A program made the translations under genes and the position numbers. Shown one piece after another: positions 13,654 to 37,210 of a stretch of 64,000 nucleotides of DNA. Below the pieces are notes generated by a model that searched no databases, was not told the origin of the DNA, and saw only the letters and a list, made by a program, of their open reading frames with translations. Positions within the stretch are counted from its first letter, which is position 1, and every line of letters begins with the position of its first letter. This DNA comes from Mycobacteriales bacterium (lineage in GTDB: Bacteria > Actinomycetota > Actinomycetes > Mycobacteriales > SCTD01): contig JBKJVH010000121.1 in assembly GCA_046590985.1 (NCBI GenBank), positions 8,148 through 72,147 of the forward strand. Reading direction: 5' to 3'.

Positions 13654-14688
13654 TTGGAGGATTCCTACAGAATCGGGACCTCAGAGCAGTGGTCGGCAGG
13701 AGGCGCGGCCGTCGCCCCGGTCCGGCAGAGTTGTGGGGTGACCTCATTGATCTCACGACCTGCCGACGCGGACGCCGGGCTCCAGGAGCACCTCACCGCC
13801 CGCCTCGAGACGGCGCTCGACGCCCATCTGTCGCGTGCGCAGCAGTGGTACCCGCACGACTACGTCCCGTGGAGCGAGGCGCGGGACTTCGCGTCGCTGC
13901 CGTTCGAGGAGACCCAGAGCCGGCTGTCGCCCGCCATCCGGGCGTCGGTGCAGCTCAACCTGCTGACCGAGGACAACCTGCCCGGCTACCACGGTGAGAT
14001 CGCCCGCGTCACCGGCAACACCGACGCCTGGAAGGTCTGGCTCGACCGCTGGACGGCTGAGGAGGGTCGGCACGCCATCGCGCTCCGCGACTACCTCACC
14101 GTGACCCGGGCGGTCGATCCCGTCGTGCTCGAGGACGAGCGGATGCTCACCGTCAGCGGTGGCTTCTCCGCGGGTGACCGGGACGGCCTCGCGGTCATTG
14201 CCTACGTCTCCATGCAGGAGCTCGCGACCCGGGTGGCCCACCGAGGCACCGGCAAGCTCTCCGGCGACCCTGGCCTGGAGAAGCTGCTCGCGCGCATCGC
14301 CACCGATGAGAACCTGCACATGGTGCTCTACCGCGACCTGTTCCTGTCGGCGTTGGAGCTCGAACCCGCGCGGGCGCTGGCTGCGTTGAAGAAGGAGATC
14401 GTCGGCTTCGCCATGCCTGGTACGGGGATCCCCGGGTTCCTCCGCCGGGCCGCTGTCGTCGCCCGGGCGGGCATCTACAACCTGGAGATCCACCGCGACC
14501 AGGTGCTACTTCCCATGCTCCGGTTCTGGGAGGTCTTCGAGCGGCCGCTGCCGCCGGACGCCGAGGTCGAGCGCGACGAGATCGCCCTGGTCATGGCAGA
14601 GATCGACCGCAAGGTCGCCAAGCAGCAGTCCCGGCCCGCACGTTCGCGGACCGGGACCGACCTGCTGGGGGCTCAGGAGCCCACGTAG
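13654..14688 (+). CDS. Soluble acyl-ACP desaturase (di-iron, DesA1/DesA2 class)
   Basis: Di-iron ligand motifs EEGRHAIALRDYL and TDENLHMVLYRDL, plus QLNLLTEDNLPGYH. Start is uncertain: the track uses TTG 13654, and in-frame GTG 13738 would give a more typical 316 aa. Confidence 0.85.
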   Translation: MEDSYRIGTSEQWSAGGAAVAPVRQSCGVTSLISRPADADAGLQEHLTARLETALDAHLSRAQQWYPHDYVPWSEARDFASLPFEETQSRLSPAIRASVQLNLLTEDNLPGYHGEIARVTGNTDAWKVWLDRWTAEEGRHAIALRDYLTVTRAVDPVVLEDERMLTVSGGFSAGDRDGLAVIAYVSMQELATRVAHRGTGKLSGDPGLEKLLARIATDENLHMVLYRDLFLSALELEPARALAALKKEIVGFAMPGTGIPGFLRRAAVVARAGIYNLEIHRDQVLLPMLRFWEVFERPLPPDAEVERDEIALVMAEIDRKVAKQQSRPARSRTGTDLLGAQEPT

Positions 14689-27324: not shown

Positions 27325-27715
27325 CGATCTGGAACCTGCTCATCAACGGCGTGTCGTACGCGGACCTGCGGGGCAAATACGTCACCCGGCTCCACCCCCT
27401 CAAAGCGGCTGGGTGAAGGGAACCTTCCAGGAGTAGAGCCAAACGCCAGGCAGTCCCTGCCGCCGCTACGCGGCGCTTTCCCGCGCGCAGCGGTGACGGC
27501 ACGTCGGCGTGTCGGGCGCCGCGTGCAGAAGGTTCGAGTGTCTTCATACACATTCGGTCGCGCCGTCGAACGGAATTTCCCGGATTCCGGTGCTCCAGGG
27601 CTAGCGGCTTCACAGCTCTTGGGCCAGAGTGTGCTCGTTTTCGACCCGTGCCTGGGTGAAGACCCGAACATCCATCGCTTCTTTGGTGACGTCGTCACAA
27701 AAGTCAGGGGTTCGC

Positions 27716-27859
27716 ATGCCCACGACAGCGCTCGCTCCAGGTCGCACCCGGTCGCGGCGAACCAGCCGACGTAGGGCGATCACCGTCACCTTCGCAGTGG
27801 TGGCCTCGCTGGTGCTCAGCACGCTGCCAGGGGGCCCCGGCCTGCGGATCGCGAACGCG
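27716..27859 (+). other. N-terminal signal peptide of the giant protein
   Basis: MPTTALAPGRTRSRRTSRRRAITVTFAVVASLVLSTLPGGPGLRIANA|AG. It has an Arg-rich n-region, a hydrophobic core and an A-x-A site. The SRRRAIT stretch is only weakly Tat-like. Confidence 0.6.
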
Positions 27860-30800
27860 GCCGGCGACCTGACGAGCGTGAGTGACGTGCCCTCGACGAC
27901 GCCGGCCAACCTCGGTGCCCTGGACCTCACCAGCCTGCAGTACGGCGACCCCACGGACGGCGTCGACCTGGTGCAGCCGCCTGAGCCCGACGCCACCGGG
28001 GCGGCGAGCCTCGGCTACGACCTCGTGCTCCCCCCGGGCAGGGGCGGGGTCGCGCCCGACCTGACCCTCGGCTACACCTCAGGCGACGACACCAGCTGGC
28101 TCGGTACCGGTTGGGACCTCTCAGTCGGAGCGATCTCGGTGGACGCCGCGTTCGGGGCCCCGCGCTACCTCGCCACGCAGGAGTCCGAGACCTACCAACT
28201 CGACGGTGACCGGCTCTTCCCCAACGCGATCCGGAGCAACCTGGTCGCGAGGACCGGCTCGGTCAAGGCGAACTTCGTCCGGACGGTCGATACCGCCCAC
28301 GAGCAGATCATCAGGTACGGGGCGACCCCCTCGACCTACTGCTGGCAGGTGCGGGACACCAAAGGCAACGAGCGCTGGTACGGCGGGGAGCCCGGCGCCA
28401 CCAGCGGCACCTGCACCCGGCACGACGACGCGGTGCTCACGGCGCCCGCCACCGGTGTGGACGGCGGCGTCGCGGGTGACTACTACTGGGGCCTGGCGTT
28501 CACCACCGACATCAGTGGCAACACCGTCCGGTACAGCTACGAGAAGATCACCGGCGTCGGGTTCGGTCAGAAGGCGCAGGCGAACTTCGGGGTGTCGCTC
28601 TACCTGTCCTCGATCGTGTACTCCGGCTTCCGGTTCGACACCGCTCCGGACCACCCGGCCTACCGGGTCCGGTTCCTGCGTGACGCCGGCGTGTCGCCGA
28701 TCCCGGCGGCGCGTCGCGACGTGGCCGTCGACGCCAGCTCCGGTCAGCCGGTCGTCACGCGGGACCTGCTGCGTCGGGTCGAGGTCGAGTACCTCAGCCC
28801 CCAGCACTACGCGACCGGGGCGGTCCCGACCTTCGTCAAGGGCTGGAACCTCGGCTACACCAACGGACCGTTCGACAAGGCACTCCTCACCTCGGTCGGC
28901 CAGGTCGGTGCCGACGGCGTCGAGCTCGCCCACCACACGTTCAGCTGGTATGACGACGTGCGCGACAGCGCGGGCCGGTACGCCGGCTTCGGTGCGACCG
29001 AGCAGTGGGGTCCCGGTGCCCCGGGGAACACCGCGAACATCGCCGCGACCAGCGCGCTCGGGACCTCCTACCGGGGTGGCGCCGACGGGGGTGCCTACAT
29101 CGGCTTCAACCCGCTGATCGCGTCCAAGATCGGTTCGCTCGGCGGTTCGTTCAACATCGGCGGCGGCCAGACCAACGAGGAGTCCACGCTGGTCGACCTG
29201 GATGGTGACGGCCTGCCGGACAAGGTGTTCCTCGAGGGATCGACGGTGTACTACCAGCGCAACCTCCGCCGACCGGGGACCACCGATGCCGACAAGTCAG
29301 CCGGCAGCTGGTTCGCACCGAAGCAGTCGTTGACCGGCATCGACAGCCTGGGGCGTTCCAGCGACCTGAAGATCCAGTTGCACTTCGAGGCCTATCCGGT
29401 GGTCGCGATCCAGGTCGGTGGTGGTTTCGGGTTCTCCTTCGGCGACCGCTACTTCGCCGACGTCAACGCCGACGGCCGGGTCGACTTCGTCAAGCCGGGC
29501 TCCCAGGGCGCCCACACCGTCTACTACAACGTGCTCGGCAACGACGGAGTGCCGCGATTCGTCGACTCCACCTACGCTGACACCCTCGAGGTGCCCCTCG
29601 ACGCGTTCGTCCCGAGCGCCACGCAGACCCTGCCGCCCGACATCGAGAAGCTGCTCACCGACAACAGCCCCCGGGTCGACACGGTCCGACGCTGGGTGGC
29701 CCCCTTCGACGGCGACGTGCGCGTCACCGCACCCGTCTCGCTCACGACCGGAACGTCCTACGCCGGTGACGGGGCCAGGGTCACTGTCGAGCACGACGGC
29801 GCGATCGACTGGTCCGCCACCCTGACGGCGGCCCACCCCTCGGACGACCCCGGGTCACTCGTCCTGCACGGGCTCACGGCCGGTGAGCCGGTGTACTTCC
29901 GCCTCGACGTCATCAACAACGCCTCGGGTGACGAGGTCGCGTGGTCCCCGAGCCTCGCCTACGTCGATGGCACCGGGACCGCGGTGTCGAGCCCGGCGGA
30001 CGCGCAGGGCCGCAGCCAGTCCGTGTTCTCCGCGGCGCAGGACTTCACCCTGTTCGGGCGCCCGCTCGCGCAGACGGCCGTCCCGAACACCACGGGCAGT
30101 CCCTTCCACGCCACCCTGACGGTCACGGTCACCCCGACCGCGCCGTTGACGGACAACCTGACCGTGCTCGCCTACCGGGGCCGCACCGGTGCGTCGCTGC
30201 CGTCGGTGCAGGAGGTCGGCACCACCGTCGTCCCGCAGCGCACCTCCAGCGCGGTCACCGCCAGCTTCGACGTCGTCATCCAGCCTGATCAGGACCTGCT
30301 CGGCCCGGACGGGCTTCGTGGCACCGACGACGACCGGCACGCCCAGGACTGGGTGAGCCTCGCGGTGGTGAGCGACTCGCCCGTCGACACCACGAAGTTC
30401 TCGGTGACAGCCGGGCTCACCGACCCCACGGCGACCGGGACCCCGCTCAGCGCCGACGAGCAGGCGCGGCTCGCGGCCGCCGGTGTGTCCATCCCGGACT
30501 CGTTGCCGGTGATCCCGGGCGTCCGGGTGTTCTCCCGGAGCAGCTCGACCAGCCCCTACACCCCGGTGACCCCGACCCACTCGGGCAGCGCCACCCTCAC
30601 GCTCGGGGTCGACGCGGCCGGCCTGCAGGGCGATCAGGGCAAGTCGTTCCCGGCCGTCGCGACGGTCAAGACGGCTGACGATCAGGGTCGGGTGGGCGTC
30701 GTCGCCCGCAAAACCATGTCCCTCACACAGACCCTCGGCCGCCTGGCGATCGCGGTGCCGCAGAACGACGCGTCGGCCGACAAGGTCTCGTTCACGGCGA

Positions 30801-33800
30801 CGGCCGGCCAGCGGTACTGGCTCGAGCTGAACATCCTCAACTCCTTCGTCGCCGCTCGGGTGGCGCCGACGCTGACCTCCAGCCTGGCAGTGCAGTACAC
30901 GACGACGACCTCGAAGACCGACACCAGCACCGGGGTCGCCCAGGCGAACTGGCCCGACACCGATGGGGTCTTCCCCTCCGGCAACAGGGGCTGGGGGATT
31001 GCCGGCTACAACGCAGACTCCGCGGGTTCGTCCCCGACGCTCCCGATCGACTCCAGCCACTTCGATCTGACCCAGGGTGGGTCTTACGACGAGAACACCA
31101 CCGTCCCGGATGCGGCGAACGCCCCGTCGGTGACCGACGTGACCAGCGGGACCACTGCGGTCATCCCGTCCGCGTTCCCCTACATCCCCTGGGGTCCCTC
31201 CTCGGGTGGCATGGCTGACAGGTGGCGCTCCGGCGGCAAGGACACGCTCTACGGCAACGGCGCCACGATGCAGTCCGACCGGCTCGGCGCCGACGTCCCG
31301 ATTCCGACGGCGGCCCCCACGGGAGGTCGCACCGCACCGCAGATGCTCAACGTCAACGGCGACTTCAACTTCATGGTCGGGTTGGTCGCGTCGTTCACGG
31401 CCGCAGCGGGCGGCGGGCGGGACCTCGCCGACTTCGAGGACTACAACGGCGACGGCTTCCCGGACTACCGGTCAGGGGGGACCGTGGACTACACCGGGCC
31501 CCGCGGTGCCAAGGCAGCCACCCGGAACGTCGGCGAGAACAGCTTCGACCTGTCCCTCGGTCTCGGCGGCGGCCTCGACGGCTCAGCCCTGTCGATCGGC
31601 TCCAAGAAGTCGGCGGGCAAGGCCGGCAGCACGTCGACCAAGACTTCGCGCGGCATGAAGCTCGGCGCCGGGGTATCGGTCAGTGCGGAGTGGACCAACC
31701 CGATCGACGGAGCTAGCGCGGAGATCTCGGACACGAAGTCCGGGTCGGACAAACGCGACATCCAGGGTGCGGTCGCCGACTCCCAGGGCAGCATCCCGAC
31801 CGTCGCCGGCTCCACCGGGACGATCATGGACCGGAGCCTGATCGACCTCAATGGCGACGGGCTTCCCGACCGGGTCGACACCTACTCCTCAGGTGAGCTG
31901 TGGGTCGCCCTGAACCTCGGCTACCGGTTCGCCAACACCCAGATCCAGTGGTCGACGGGCCGGGGGCACTCCGCTAAGTCGCTGAACGGGACCTTGTCGC
32001 TGGGCTTCCAGTTCGACGCGATGGAGTTCGCCGGAGGCGTCTCCTACACCGAGGGTGTCGACTTCACGCTCCTCGACTGGATCGACGTCGACGGCGACGG
32101 CGTCCCGGATCGCATGAACAACGTCGGCGGCGTCAACCCGCAGACGGTGTTCGGGTCCGGCGACGGCATGAAGGGCCGACCCGAGATCACCTACGGCAAC
32201 TACCAGCACGGCAACGTCGCCGTGGACGCCGCCAAGTGGGGCGACCAGTCCGCCGACGGGAACCTTCCCGGCGTGCCGCTGCCCGGCGGACAGCTCGATG
32301 TCGGTCGGACGACGGCGCTGTCCGGAGGCGTGGACTTCAGCTTCTACATCGGCCCGCTCTGCGTGATCGGGATCTGCTACCTGGTGATCAACCCAGGGGT
32401 GCACGGCGGCTACGACCGGACCACCAGTCAGGTGTCCATGGTCGACGTGGACGGCGACGGCTACGTCGACGCGGTCCGCAGCACCGACAGCAAAGACCTG
32501 CAGGTGCGGCTCAACACCCACCGTCGAACCAATCTGCTCAAGTCGGTCGCGAACCCGCTCGGTGGCACGTTCACCCTCGACTACACGCGCACCGGCAACA
32601 CCCGGGCGAACCCTCAGTCGACGTACGCGCTGACGTCGGTGAGCGTGGACGACGGGCACCCCGGTGATGGGGTGAGCGTGATGACCTCGACCTACACCTA
32701 CTCCGGTGGTGTGTTCGACCGGGCACTGCGCCAGGACCTGGGCTTCTCCGCTGTCAGGCAGGACGACCTGGATGCGAACGGCACCGTGCTGCGCAGCTAT
32801 CTGCGGTCCTACGCCAACAGCGATCCGTACAGCGCGGGTCAGCTGACGCAGGAGACGACCCTGGACGGCGCCGGCACGACCGTAGCCCGGGCGACCTACG
32901 CCTACGAACTGGCAGACGCGAACCCACGGGCATCATCGTTCGGGGCCAAGGTGGCCGACGTCCCGGCCACCGGCGCGCAGCTGTCCGAGGTACCGGCGGT
33001 CGGCTCCACCAACCGGGTCACGCTGTTCGACCGCGCGTTGTGGCCGAGGCTGGCGAGCGAGACCGCGACCCGCTTCGACGCAGCAGGGCACCCGCAGGGC
33101 CTGCGGACCGACTACGGCTACGACGCCCTCGGTGACGTCATCTCCGTCAAGGAGTTCAACGAGACCGAGACCCCGTACGACGACGTGCTCACCCGCATCA
33201 CCTACTCCGACTGCTCGGTCCGCTCCGGCGACCGCAGCTACGGCGCTGACAGCAGCTGGGTGTCGGTGGCCCAGTCGGTGCAGCAGTACGGCGGGTTCGA
33301 CGAGGCGGGCGGCCTGCTGCGGCACCGCGAGGCGGGGCCGAACCTCTGCATCAACGCGGCCCCGACCCGGGTCGCCGAGCTGATCGAGCCGGCGTCCGCA
33401 AACGACTGTCATCTCGACCTGTACGCGATCACCGAGATGGGCTTCGACACCCACGGCAGCTACAACACCGTCGCCCGTCCCTCGAACTCGCGTCCGACCA
33501 GCTGCGCCGACTACCCGGCGCCCACTGTGGCCGACGCCAGCTACTCCCCGGTCAACGACTGCTCCGACATCGCGCCGCCCGCGGGCTCGCCCGCGACCCG
33601 GTACTGCGTGCACTACATCTTCGACCCGCACCGCTTCACCGACATCGCGCAGGTGACCGACAACCACGGGCTGACCTCCTCGGCGACCTATGACCCGCTG
33701 AACGGGCTGATCGGCAGCGGCACCGACCAGAACGGCAACCTGACGACGTACGCCTACGACACCATCGGTCGCCGGGCGTCAGTGACCGCACCGAAGGAGC

Positions 33801-36800
33801 AGGGGACCGGGCACCCGACGGTCAGCTACCGCTACGGCGGCCTCCGCACCCAACCCGACGCTGCCGGCATCAGCTTTGCCTGGGCCGTGGCCGACCACAC
33901 CGACGTCGTGCGCCCCAGTGATCCGATCCAGACGGTCGCCTTCGTCGACGGCATCGGGCGCACGGTCCAGCGCAAGAGCGACGCCTCGGTCGCGGGCCGC
34001 GCGGGAGCATCTCGGGTTGTCGAGGGCGCCGTCGACTACGACGCCCTGGGCCGGGAGGCGAACAAGTACTACCCGCTGGTCGAGGCGGGCAGCGCCGCGA
34101 CCCTGACCACGTACAACTCGCTGACCTCGTCCTCACCCACCGCCGACACGAACGTCCCGGTGACCAAGCCCACGGTGCGGACCTTCGACGCGCTCGACCG
34201 GCTGCGCACCACGACCCTGCCGGACGGCACCACGGAGTCGACGGACTACGACCACGCCGTCGTACCCGACCCGACCTTCGCGTACGGACCCTCCTCAGGT
34301 CCGCCCGTCGTCCTCACCCGACAGATCGACACCGACGCGCTCGGGCACCAGACCCGGACCTGGGCCGACGTCGGCGGTGCGGTCTACCGCAACGAGCAGG
34401 CGCCGGCCGCGGCCAGCAACCCGGATGGGACGGCCGGCCCGCTCGCGAGCCTGCCCCCGAGCGGCGTAGCGACCACCGCACGACTGGTGGCCTCGACCTC
34501 CACTCCAGGTCTCATCGTGACCCGCTTCGAGTACAACTACCTCGGTCGTGTCGTGGCCGCGGTCGACCCGGCCGGCGCGAGGACGACCTACTCCTACGAC
34601 CTGCTCGGCGACCTGACGTCGACCAACTCGCCGGACGCCGGCGTGGTGGACAAGCAGTTCGCGCCGGCAGGCAACCTGCTGACGGTGACCCGTTCCGGCG
34701 GCACCGTGGCCGGCTACGGGTACGACCTCGACCGGCTCACGTCGATCGACTACACCGACGCGACCCCGGCAGTCCGCTACTCCTACGGCAACCCCGGCGC
34801 GACCGGCAACTCCGCCGGGCGGGTGAGATCGGTCCATGACGGGGCGATGGACCGCACCTATACCTATGACGCGGACGGCAACGTCGTGACGGAGGCGGCC
34901 ACCGAGGCGGCCGACCCGTTCGGCAAGGGCTCCGGCGGCACGCCGCCGAACGCCACCACCGGCTGGACCTTCGACAGCCTCGGGCGGGTCCTGACCACGA
35001 GCTACCCGTCCAAGGAGGTCCTGACCACTCACTACGACTTGGGCGGCCGGCCGGACAAGTTGGTCTCCGCGATCCCGCAGTCGACGCTCTACGACCAGTA
35101 CGGCACCCCGGTCCCCAGGCCCGACCTGGCCCTGACCTACGTATCGTCGGTGGGTTACGACGAGTTCGGCCAGGGGGCCAGAATCACCACGGGAACCGGG
35201 GTGGTCACCAGCTATGGCTTCGACCCGAAGCGGCGCTTCCTCACCAGCATCGACACCGACTCGACCGTCGCGCTGCAGCAGGACGGCTCGACCTCGGCGG
35301 CAGCCCAGCTGCAGCGGCTGCGCTACACCTACGACTCTGTCGGCAACGTCCGCGACGTGGTCAACAAGCTCTACGACCGCGGGTCCGCCACGTCGGTGTC
35401 CCAGCTCGGGACTCCGCCGGCCAACGGTCTGCCGGGTGCGTCGCAGCAGTCCTACACCTACGACGGCTTCTACCGCGTCACCGGTGCGGTGGGCAGCTAC
35501 ACCGACCGGAACACCCGTCGCAACTACACCTTCGCGGACGACTACTCGGCCAACGGGAACCTGGTGGCCAAGAAGCAGGTCACGACGACGACCCTGACGA
35601 CCGGGACGACCGGGACGAAGAACACGGGCGGCAAGACTGCCACGACGTCTGGTGGAAGTTCGGCGCTGAGCAACTGCAACGCGAACACCAGCTCCGGTGG
35701 CGGGGCCATGAACGACGACAGCCTGGCCTCGTTCGCCATCGCTGCAGGGGACGTCACCTATCGCAAGGACACGGCCGGCCACACGATCCACCAGATGCAG
35801 AAGCTGGCGGCCCGCGACTACACCTACGACGCCAAGGGCAACCTGGCGTCGTGGAGCGAGCCTTGCTCCAAGAGCAAGACCATCGGCCGTCAGATGACCT
35901 GGGACGCCGAGAACCGGCTGGTCCGGATCGCTGAGGGCAACAACGACACGCAGTACCGATACTCGGCCGAGGGGGTGCGCTCGATCGAGCGTGGCCCGGG
36001 CGGGACCTCCTGGTTCGTCAACGACTACTGGCGGATGGTCAACGGCGGGCTTCGCTACGCGAGCATCTATCTCGGTGGACGCCTGATCGCCAGCCACCGC
36101 ACCAGCGGGGACGACATCGCCGCCCCGCCCCCGGCGACGTGCACGGACACGGTCCTCTCGCCGTGCGTCTGCACCTCGGCCTGCTCGGTGCCGGACGCGA
36201 GCTACTGCGTCGGGGATCAGATCTACGACGCGGCGACGTCGACCTGCCAGCCCCGCCCGACCGTGCCCGGCAAGATCTACTTCCTGCACAAGGACCTGCA
36301 GGGCAGCCTCCGAGTCGTCACCGACGAGAAGGCAGGGGTGTTCCAGTACGTGGACTACCTGCCGACGGGCCGACCATGGGTGCTGGGGCAGAGCACGATC
36401 AAGGACACCCCGAACCTGTTCGCCGGGGGCTGGACCGACGCCACCTACGACCTCGTGAACTTCGGTCAGCGCTGGTACGAGACAAGGGAACAGCAGTTCT
36501 ACAGCCCCGAGCCGATGCTCGAGGAGGATCCACTGATCACGGTGGCCAATCCGGACCTGTTGTCGGCGTACACCTACGCCTCGTCGAACCCGCTGAGGTA
36601 CGTGGACACCGACGGCCGGTTCAAGAGCCCTGCCGACGTCGCGTCCAGCTTCGTGTCCTCGTTCTCCGGCCTCGACCGCGGCAAGGGCCAGAACAGGCCC
36701 AAGGCCAAGCTCTGGTTCGCCGGCAAGGCGGGCTTCGAGGAGCTGAAGGACGGCAACAACGGGGCGTTCCCGGACGCCAAGGACAAGGTCGACCGGTACA

Positions 36801-37210: not shown

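Follow-up and report, generated by a model that had tools for sequence, protein, structure and literature searches.

The window analysed here is a stretch of 64,000 nucleotides from a Mycobacteriales bacterium (GenBank assembly GCA_046590985.1, contig JBKJVH010000121.1, positions 8,148 to 72,147, forward strand), in which a giant gene encodes an RHS protein of 3,164 amino acids whose last 196 residues, lying behind the Rhs-associated core, match no known domain. As judged from sequence comparison, this C-terminal tail is restricted to one clade, is not polymorphic and descends vertically together with the RHS shell; it is not a swappable toxin cassette. We propose, with a probability of about 0.5, that a stand-alone TcB-TcC-like cocoon carries it as a non-enzymatic and largely unfolded cargo or plug extension. 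An earlier note on this DNA had treated the tail as a payload of the RHS/TcC kind, which as a rule is hypervariable; the finding corrects this expectation of a new toxin payload and defines a rare conserved family, of which our literature searches turned up no description. The tail is composed of the following parts (window coordinates):

36620..36880, forward strand: tail module, 87 amino acids of mixed composition with an isoelectric point (pI) of 9.75, delimited in the first family alignment (A1) and in an alignment of 23 tails
36695..36865, forward strand: conserved core of the module, RPKAKLWFAGKAG...DKVDRYTTLLGIETVDGVTKVRLAGFTV, a predicted helix followed by a beta-hairpin (low-confidence AlphaFold2 model)
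36881..37207, forward strand: low-complexity part of the tail, 109 amino acids with a pI of 4.4, consisting of 24% Ala, 15% Ser, 13% Thr, 12% Gly and 11% Pro and ending in GLEDTDP
37118..37207, forward strand: C-terminal stretch alignable across the family, in the window SAGGA..TAGDSPPPRRASVGSAAQGLEDTDP

Conservation of the tail among relatives

Using the last 593 residues of the protein as query, we found 28 proteins. The 16 closest are 43-61% identical to the query; in 14 of them the core is followed by a homologous tail, partly disrupted in two (P0005 and P0016), and the two others (P0009 and P0015) have no intact C-terminus. Among the 20-odd relatives, which come from soil metagenomes and from metagenome-assembled genomes of Chloroflexota/Dehalococcoidia, every one with an intact C-terminus carries the homologous tail, and the module aligns over about 110 columns, in 13 relatives for alignment A1 and later in 23 sequences. 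The ends of P0009, P0015 and P0016 are frameshifted, and in three metagenome contigs the orthologue is split into several gene calls (L002 1490-10999; L003 893-5537; L005 2016-11122); assembly errors or real pseudogenes could account for both.

Three full-length orthologues of 3,130, 3,105 and 3,184 amino acids are collinear with the window protein from the signal peptide to the stop, with an identity of 30-73% per bin of 100 residues. In comparison with these three, conservation is lowest in the tail (27-38%), slightly under the most variable internal stretch (33-35%), and between the window protein and its relatives identity amounts to 24-41% in the tail and to 61-74% in the last 200 residues of the shell. 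The divergence of the tail tracks that of the shell: over 276 pairs, the identity of the first 100 tail residues correlates with that of the last 200 shell residues (r = 0.82) and climbs smoothly from about 23% for shells less than 50% identical to about 83% for shells more than 90% identical. None of the 276 pairs combined a similar shell with an unrelated tail, the combination by which C-terminal displacement in Rhs and TcC proteins is recognised. The earlier note had itself suggested aligning the C-termini of orthologues, and had stated that conservation instead of polymorphism would speak against a payload; conservation is what the alignment revealed.

The distant RHS relatives P0017-P0022 are 31-36% identical to the query and 36-42% identical over the last 200 shell residues, and their tails keep the layout of about 100 residues plus an end rich in Pro, Ala and Gly. 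Profile-profile comparison (hhalign) of the tail with theirs detected no similarity, with a probability of 0.1, and the homology of the tail is therefore limited to the clade and not superfamily-wide. When 1.84 billion representative proteins were searched exhaustively with the profile, 19 matched at E ≤ 0.001. The top 15 correspond to the C-terminal end of this protein family, in fragments or in full-length proteins, the latter including the three orthologues above; the four weakest (P0040-P0043), weak or repetitive, were left unevaluated. The tail module thus appears to occur in no other protein context among these representatives. A word-indexed protein database gave no match to 93 residues of the tail alone and returned only P0033 for the A1 profile, because such an index is too insensitive for a short, diverged and low-complexity region; homologues of the tail were recovered only through the search including the shell and through the exhaustive search with a hidden Markov model. 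When genome contigs were scanned for peptide patterns specific to the window, the sole match was a distant Myxococcus RHS protein, which says nothing on the absence of the family from cultured species.

Coding status and anatomy of the tail

The NCBIfam Rhs_assc_core match ends in ...NPLRYVDTDG at base 36616 and is followed by RF, base 36623 starting the Lys after DTDGRF. Depending on the chosen core end the tail measures 195-197 residues, 196 corresponding to 36620-37207. This confirms the extent of about 195 residues given in the earlier note, and its division into some 87 residues of mixed composition and about 105 of Ala/Ser/Thr/Pro/Gly ending in GLEDTDP holds with 87 and 109 residues. The tail is genuine coding sequence: the module has a GC content at third codon positions (GC3) of 0.97 and the low-complexity part one of 0.87, compared with 0.66 and a flat codon-position signal in the intergenic stretch, and the other two frames across the tail contain only stops or nonsense. 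Independent Logan contigs from a soil-metagenome run reproduce 36300-37500 without differences, save for a 7-base contig break.

These data bear on one of the three options of the earlier note, that of a degenerate remnant. As such a remnant, or as read-through, the tail would be junk left after the loss of a toxin domain and open by chance in a genome of 70% GC. Such an origin would fit the low complexity of half of the tail, the low AlphaFold confidence described below and the long spurious open reading frames (ORFs) that are common in the window. It is contradicted by the homologous tail in more than 20 relatives including the three full-length orthologues, by the independent assembly, and by the conservation, narrow size range, alignable C-terminal motif and strong codon-position signal of the tail, on which grounds we excluded it as extremely improbable.

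Throughout the family the tail shows a three-part layout, with a basic module of about 87 residues, a stretch of about 100 residues rich in Pro, Ala, Gly, Ser and Thr, and a short alignable C-terminal motif. The tail residues kept in at least 85% of the sequences are two Gly, an R..R..P element, one Asp, a Thr and a Leu (these in the D...RF.TiL helix/strand), and also a Gly, an FG pair, a further Asp and a Pro; the conserved hairpin predicted in the module is YTTLLGIETVDGVTKVRLAG. Only about 55 tail residues are well conserved. Where the Chloroflexota clade has an F-D-L-G...E-K-H-Q...I-S-I-S element, the window and its two nearest relatives, P0011 and P0005, have low-complexity sequence instead. 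A hidden frameshift encoding this EKHQ/ISIS element was ruled out, the other frames being empty.

The low-complexity half drifts quickly, being rich in Ala, Ser and Thr in the window and acidic and rich in Pro, Ala and Asp in the Chloroflexota clade, and it is of equivalent length in orthologues. The mass of the whole tail is 19.4 kDa in the window and 18.9-20.1 kDa in 15 of 20 relatives; the others span 15.8-25.4 kDa and include at least two fragmentary or frameshifted gene calls. The last 45 or so residues of 22 members can be aligned (MAFFT), with the consensus PPP..DAGGD..GxDAP, a Pro-rich run and P(R/N)xA(S/A)PxAAxGPD(D/E), and the motif reads SPPPRRASVGSAAQGLEDTDP in the window. It includes PRRASVG (37154-37174), which takes the forms PRRASPA in P0032, PRQASPA in P0014 and PRAASLG in P0039 and which we take to be similar to the protein kinase A consensus peptide Kemptide (LRRASLG), as a chance likeness or as a linear motif. 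For Tc cocoons about 20 kDa has been reported as the lower cargo size or activation threshold (PMC6868009), and the nearness of the tail's range of some 19-20 kDa to this threshold is suggestive only. The steady tail mass (mostly 18-21 kDa) despite drift could exemplify a minimum cargo size that pressurises the cocoon gate.

Searches for a toxin domain

The tail had no match in Pfam, NCBIfam or PDB sequences, alone or as the A1 family profile; the best candidates, ribosomal protein L25 (E = 0.19) and a low-complexity match to DnaX (E = 0.1), were treated as chance. AlphaFold2 reached a pLDDT (predicted local distance difference test) of about 50 for the tail alone with 13 sequences. For residues 2320-3105 (numbered from the GTG at 27629) with 20 sequences, it reached about 75 in the 650 residues of the shell and about 25 in core and tail. 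Neither model supports a fold assignment; at low confidence and from shallow alignments, both hint at a beta-hairpin preceded by one or two helices, and comparison of the low-confidence tail model with the PDB by Foldseek gave a meaningless best E-value of 2. The statement of the earlier note that the tail shows no recognisable toxin motif is therefore upheld by all these searches, and the Foldseek check that it had proposed matched no known toxin or structural domain. No pattern of His, Cys, Ser or Glu residues of catalytic type is conserved in the 23-sequence alignment. The tail contains no hydrophobic, transmembrane or pore-forming segment either (the maximal Kyte-Doolittle 19-mer scores 0.78), and 8% of the residues in its low-complexity half are hydrophobic.

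Such results have to be weighed against the proposal, also contained in the earlier note, of a novel small effector, which would be enzymatic or target-binding and directed at eukaryotic grazers or bacteria, the producer being protected by encapsulation or by an immunity gene elsewhere. The tail occupies the exact site of Tc and Rhs toxins, and its N-terminal half is basic like residues 1-128 of the TccC3 hypervariable region (HVR), which likewise have a pI of 9.75. Anti-eukaryotic Tc toxins require no immunity gene, and because 128 of 171 TcC HVR clusters carry no recognisable domain (PMC7861908), a missing match does not exclude a toxin. The proposal is weakened by the lack of conserved catalytic-type residues, by the low-complexity sequence that stands in place of the module's first half in the window clade, by the small number of well-conserved residues without a confident predicted fold, and by the fact that the tail was found in no other toxin architecture and with no diversifying replacement. 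We consider a small toxin doubtful, and less likely than the scaffold discussed in the next section, which is the main rival to the cargo or plug extension.

The end of the core and the fate of the tail

36458..36619, forward strand: end of the Rhs core with a candidate autoprotease triad (NCBIfam Rhs_assc_core, family alignment, phmmer alignment to 9pt5)

In the autoprotease of Rhs and Tc proteins, an Arg is combined with two Asp residues, of which the second belongs to PxxxxDPxG[W/L/F], and the cut falls after the residue next to the Gly (PMC8765631, PMC9935623). The candidate triad of the window protein comprises R2919 in RWYE (36470), E2932 in SPEP, at the position of the first Asp, and D2964 in VDTDGR, and the phmmer alignment to the teneurin-like protein 9pt5 sets the AQDP of the latter on SPEP. 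All family members keep the Arg and the second Asp, either Asp or Glu occupies the first acidic position in every case, and P1 is Arg, Gln or Gly. The carboxylate retained at the first position would argue for a live autoprotease site.

The mechanism that we favour supposes that the RHS shell would enclose the polypeptide behind the Rhs core in a largely unfolded state, on the model of TcC, Rhs and SGS1, the last being a Wolbachia-derived Tc-like Rhs/YD shell protein of 3,364 amino acids from mosquitoes (PMC9935623). It would probably be freed from the core by a cut after DTDGR, through an Arg/Glu/Asp variant of the Arg/Asp/Asp site, and would then act as a non-enzymatic cargo or as a space-filling plug extension. 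If the tail is non-enzymatic, the producer would need no immunity protein, and most of the selected function would be carried by the shell. Of the three options in the earlier note, its non-toxic cargo agrees best with these observations.

Several observations weigh against this mechanism. Glu stands in for the first catalytic Asp, the P1 residue is Arg and not Leu, Trp or Phe, and 9 residues are inserted between the acidic residues, whose spacing is 32 in the window protein, 22 in RhsA and 24 in 9pt5. Both the location of the tail inside the shell and its cleavage are inferred by analogy, and the AlphaFold models are uninformative on these points. The pI of the tail varies from 4.05 to 11.6 across orthologues; the net charge is thus not conserved, which argues against a uniform constraint of the translocation type. 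A short conserved motif at the end of a Pro/Ala-rich linker would be expected in an exposed segment more than in buried filler. Finally, the absence of TcA reported below covers only 10-27 kb around each gene.

The Glu and Arg substitutions leave room for a lost cleavage by analogy with teneurins, which have lost a catalytic Asp and do not cleave, and SGS1 threads part of its C-terminal moiety through an opening in the middle of the shell (PMC8765631, PMC9935623). The tail could accordingly belong to a scaffold of the teneurin/SGS1 kind, in which the core would remain uncleaved and the tail attached, leaving the shell as a flexible tether whose terminal motif would bind a partner or the cell envelope; the giant protein would then have a surface or adhesion role and would not serve for delivery. 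In addition to the altered site with its core insertion and the conserved linear motif at the far C-terminus, such a scaffold would suit the non-polymorphic tail, the lack of an immunity gene, the housekeeping neighbourhood and the best PDB match of the core region, the bacterial teneurin-like 9pt5. It agrees less well with the acidic positions that are always Asp or Glu and with the invariant Arg and second Asp, which suggest a retained active site, as well as with a tail size within the range of cocoon cargo, with a tail devoid of anchor signal or transmembrane segment, and with the failure to detect an NHL, FN-plug, ABD or Tox-GHH domain. We therefore hold the scaffold for possible at rather low confidence and retain the cargo or plug extension as the preferred reading.

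Architecture of the protein

27629..37210, forward strand: ORF containing the giant gene (ORF list; GTG at 27629)
27716..37210, forward strand: whole gene, stop included (source gene call from the ATG at 27716; 3,164 amino acids)
27716..27859, forward strand: predicted N-terminal signal peptide MPTTALAPGRTRSRRTSRRRAITVTFAVVASLVLSTLPGGPGLRIANA, read from the sequence, with a very basic n-region including SRRRAITV
29195..32515, forward strand: FG-GAP beta-propeller region (motif scan; FG-GAP_3 and TcdB_midN matches)
36140..36253, forward strand: six-cysteine insertion CTDTVLSPCVCTSACSVPDASYCVGDQIYDAATSTCQP in the shell, directly ahead of the Rhs core, with the pattern CTDT..C.C...C.......C.............C

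The protein is, by its predicted domains, a secreted TcB-TcC-like fusion of the stand-alone cocoon type, in which a signal peptide, SpvB, a split FG-GAP propeller, TcdB_midN, the RHS shell, the Rhs core and the tail follow each other. Pfam matches were obtained for SpvB (E = 2.5e-10), TcdB_toxin_midN (4e-15) and RHS_repeat (1e-15), and also for FG-GAP_3 and DUF6443, and TcdB_midC was not detected by Pfam; NCBIfam recognised Rhs_assc_core (36 bits for a cut-off of 32.5) and YD_repeat_2x. The signal peptide includes the second-highest hydrophobic 19-mer of the protein (residues 21-40) and would be cleaved after ANA. Its n-region is twin-arginine-like (TSRRRAITV), with RR before the hydrophobic core also in two of the three full-length orthologues; export by Sec is more likely, because twin-arginine export of a 330-kDa protein would be unusual. 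The most hydrophobic 19-mer outside the signal peptide, FSFYIGPLCVIGICYLVINPG, is situated at residues 1539-1559 (about 32330-32392) in the propeller/TcdB region and is kept in orthologues.

A motif scan located six Ca-type FG-GAP motifs of the form DxDGDGxxD, at residues 494 and 582 and then at 1242, 1377, 1457 and 1577. The six-bladed propeller is thus parted into two groups by an insertion of about 640 residues (29516-31435, residues 601-1240 or so), which is 30-53% identical to that of the orthologues and has no Pfam match in the window protein or in the three orthologues. The propeller of Tc toxins is the gate that docks on TcA, and the insertion may take over this docking role. Further on, the RHS shell contains a low-complexity loop rich in Thr, Gly and Ser at 35582-35704 (TTTTLTTGTTGTKNTGG...SSGGG; TTTTSTTGNGGG...GSGGG in orthologues). 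The six-Cys pattern is common to the close relatives P0001-P0014 and absent from the distant relatives P0017-P0022; the insertion looks like a small disulfide-rich knob, in keeping with an extracellular protein, in a region of low AlphaFold confidence.

Genomic neighbourhood

37211..37411, no strand: intergenic gap of 201 nucleotides after the TGA stop at 37208-37210
37412..38824, forward strand: GlcD-like FAD-linked oxidase (Pfam FAD_binding_4 and FAD-oxidase_C; probable start GTG 37412)

The earlier note had described about 200 nucleotides without a credible ORF behind the gene, followed by a GlcD-like oxidase, and had seen no downstream immunity candidate; each of these points was confirmed. 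The gap contains no credible ORF on either strand (ORFs of at least 20 amino acids) and no promoter- or terminator-like site, and the oxidase is unrelated to the system and not kept beside the orthologues. The neighbourhood is one of housekeeping genes: upstream lie those for phosphoenolpyruvate carboxylase, a pyridoxal phosphate enzyme, HxlR and MarR regulators, an IcmF-type mutase and acyl-CoA and 3-hydroxyacyl-CoA dehydrogenases, and downstream the flavin oxidase and ATP-binding cassette (Liv-type) transport. Nothing resembling TcA, a type VI or type VII secretion system or an immunity gene was found in the 64-kb window.

The downstream context differs in all seven loci inspected, the six orthologous ones being followed by DUF899, MMPL, an MTHFR-like gene, M16 peptidases, a small hypothetical gene or the contig end, and no immunity candidate lies 3' of the gene in any of the seven. 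We explain the absence of an immunity gene by the conservation of the tail in relatives, where it would not be a swappable toxin. No TcA was found within -27/+27 kb of the window gene, nor in the flanks of the six orthologous loci, which extend over at most 10 kb (only 0.1-3.7 kb in L004, L006 and L007). Elsewhere in the window, the only Rfam match is to the ASdes small RNA family (72 bits, 14062-14129, reverse strand), at a place where a forward ORF of 344 amino acids (13654-14688) overlaps a reverse ORF of 246 (13753-14493). In Mycobacterium, ASdes is antisense to a desaturase gene, a hint that the contig belongs to Actinomycetota.

Significance

RHS and Tc cocoons are generally regarded as containers of swappable enzymatic toxins. 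A single tail that is kept, is not enzyme-like and is half disordered, with no immunity gene or nearby TcA, suggests that encapsulation serves ends beyond the delivery of polymorphic toxins, an idea that so far rests mainly on eukaryotic descendants, the teneurins and SGS1. For annotation, it follows that an unknown C-terminus behind an Rhs core should not automatically be called a new toxin. More speculatively, and at rather low probability, these Tc-like shells of uncultured soil Actinomycetota and Chloroflexota could make up a family that is passed on vertically, works independently of TcA and has been repurposed, as a bacterial parallel to teneurins and SGS1. Its conserved, disordered "cargo" of about 19 kDa would bear a terminal linear motif that engages a partner, and the protein would serve adhesion, cell-cell interaction or envelope organisation instead of delivering a toxin.

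Comparison with known systems

The architecture itself is already known, from the TcdB/TcaC-type class of SpvB-propeller-RHS proteins and from the BC cocoon of Tc toxins. With the TcB-TcC cocoons of Photorhabdus (TcdB2-TccC3) and Yersinia (YenB-YenC2), the window protein shares SpvB, the FG-GAP propeller, the TcdB middle region (TcdB_midN), an RHS/YD shell closed by the Rhs-associated core with PxxxxD.xG, and a C-terminal polypeptide of about 20 kDa behind the core with a basic N-terminal half. It differs by being a single chain of 3,164 residues with a signal peptide, by the insertion of about 640 residues that parts the propeller, and by the Glu in place of the first catalytic Asp, and in seven loci its family has no TcA within 10-27 kb. 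The HVR of TcC usually measures 201-400 residues (PMC7861908), whereas the window protein ends in a 196-residue tail that is homologous in relatives, diverges with the shell (r = 0.82) and bears no enzyme signature, and thus has no hypervariable C-terminal toxin.

The polymorphic RHS toxins of the TcdB/TcaC class, from Actinobacteria and Chloroflexi, resemble the window family in their signal peptide, SpvB, integrin-like propeller, RHS repeats and phyla. The hallmark of that class is a variety of recombining toxin domains at the C-terminus, usually accompanied by immunity genes (Zhang et al. 2012, PMC3482391), whereas the window family has one tail module that co-diverges with the shell, and neither recombining toxin ends nor a cognate immunity gene directly 3' were found. 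The window family consequently lacks three features that define polymorphic and ABC toxins, namely a hypervariable toxin, an immunity gene and a neighbouring TcA.

Teneurins and bacterial teneurin-like proteins (PDB 9pt5/9ifo; PMC13018210) likewise combine a YD shell and a core plug. Among PDB sequences 9pt5 matches the core region best (phmmer E = 6e-4), and homologues give weak TEN_YD-shell matches. The metazoan teneurins are scaffolds, non-polymorphic like the window tail and likewise altered in their catalytic site. Unlike teneurins, the window protein has SpvB and TcdB parts, and Pfam detected in it none of the NHL, FN-plug, ABD and Tox-GHH domains; the bacterial teneurin-like proteins, for their part, bear diverse toxins with immunity proteins.

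SGS1 differs in that its tail consists of helices predicted to become transmembrane plus a Tox-SGS domain, whereas the window tail, conserved as it is, has no hydrophobic segment and hence no latent transmembrane helices of this type; SGS1 also keeps Arg/Asp/Asp, and the two tails have no detectable sequence similarity. Both are nevertheless giant single-chain Tc-like shells without TcA, with extra domains inserted around the propeller, and in both the C-terminal moiety (about 230 residues in SGS1, housed largely unfolded in the shell) is conserved in the family and non-polymorphic. By this analogy, SGS1 would be the closest functional analogue of the window family.

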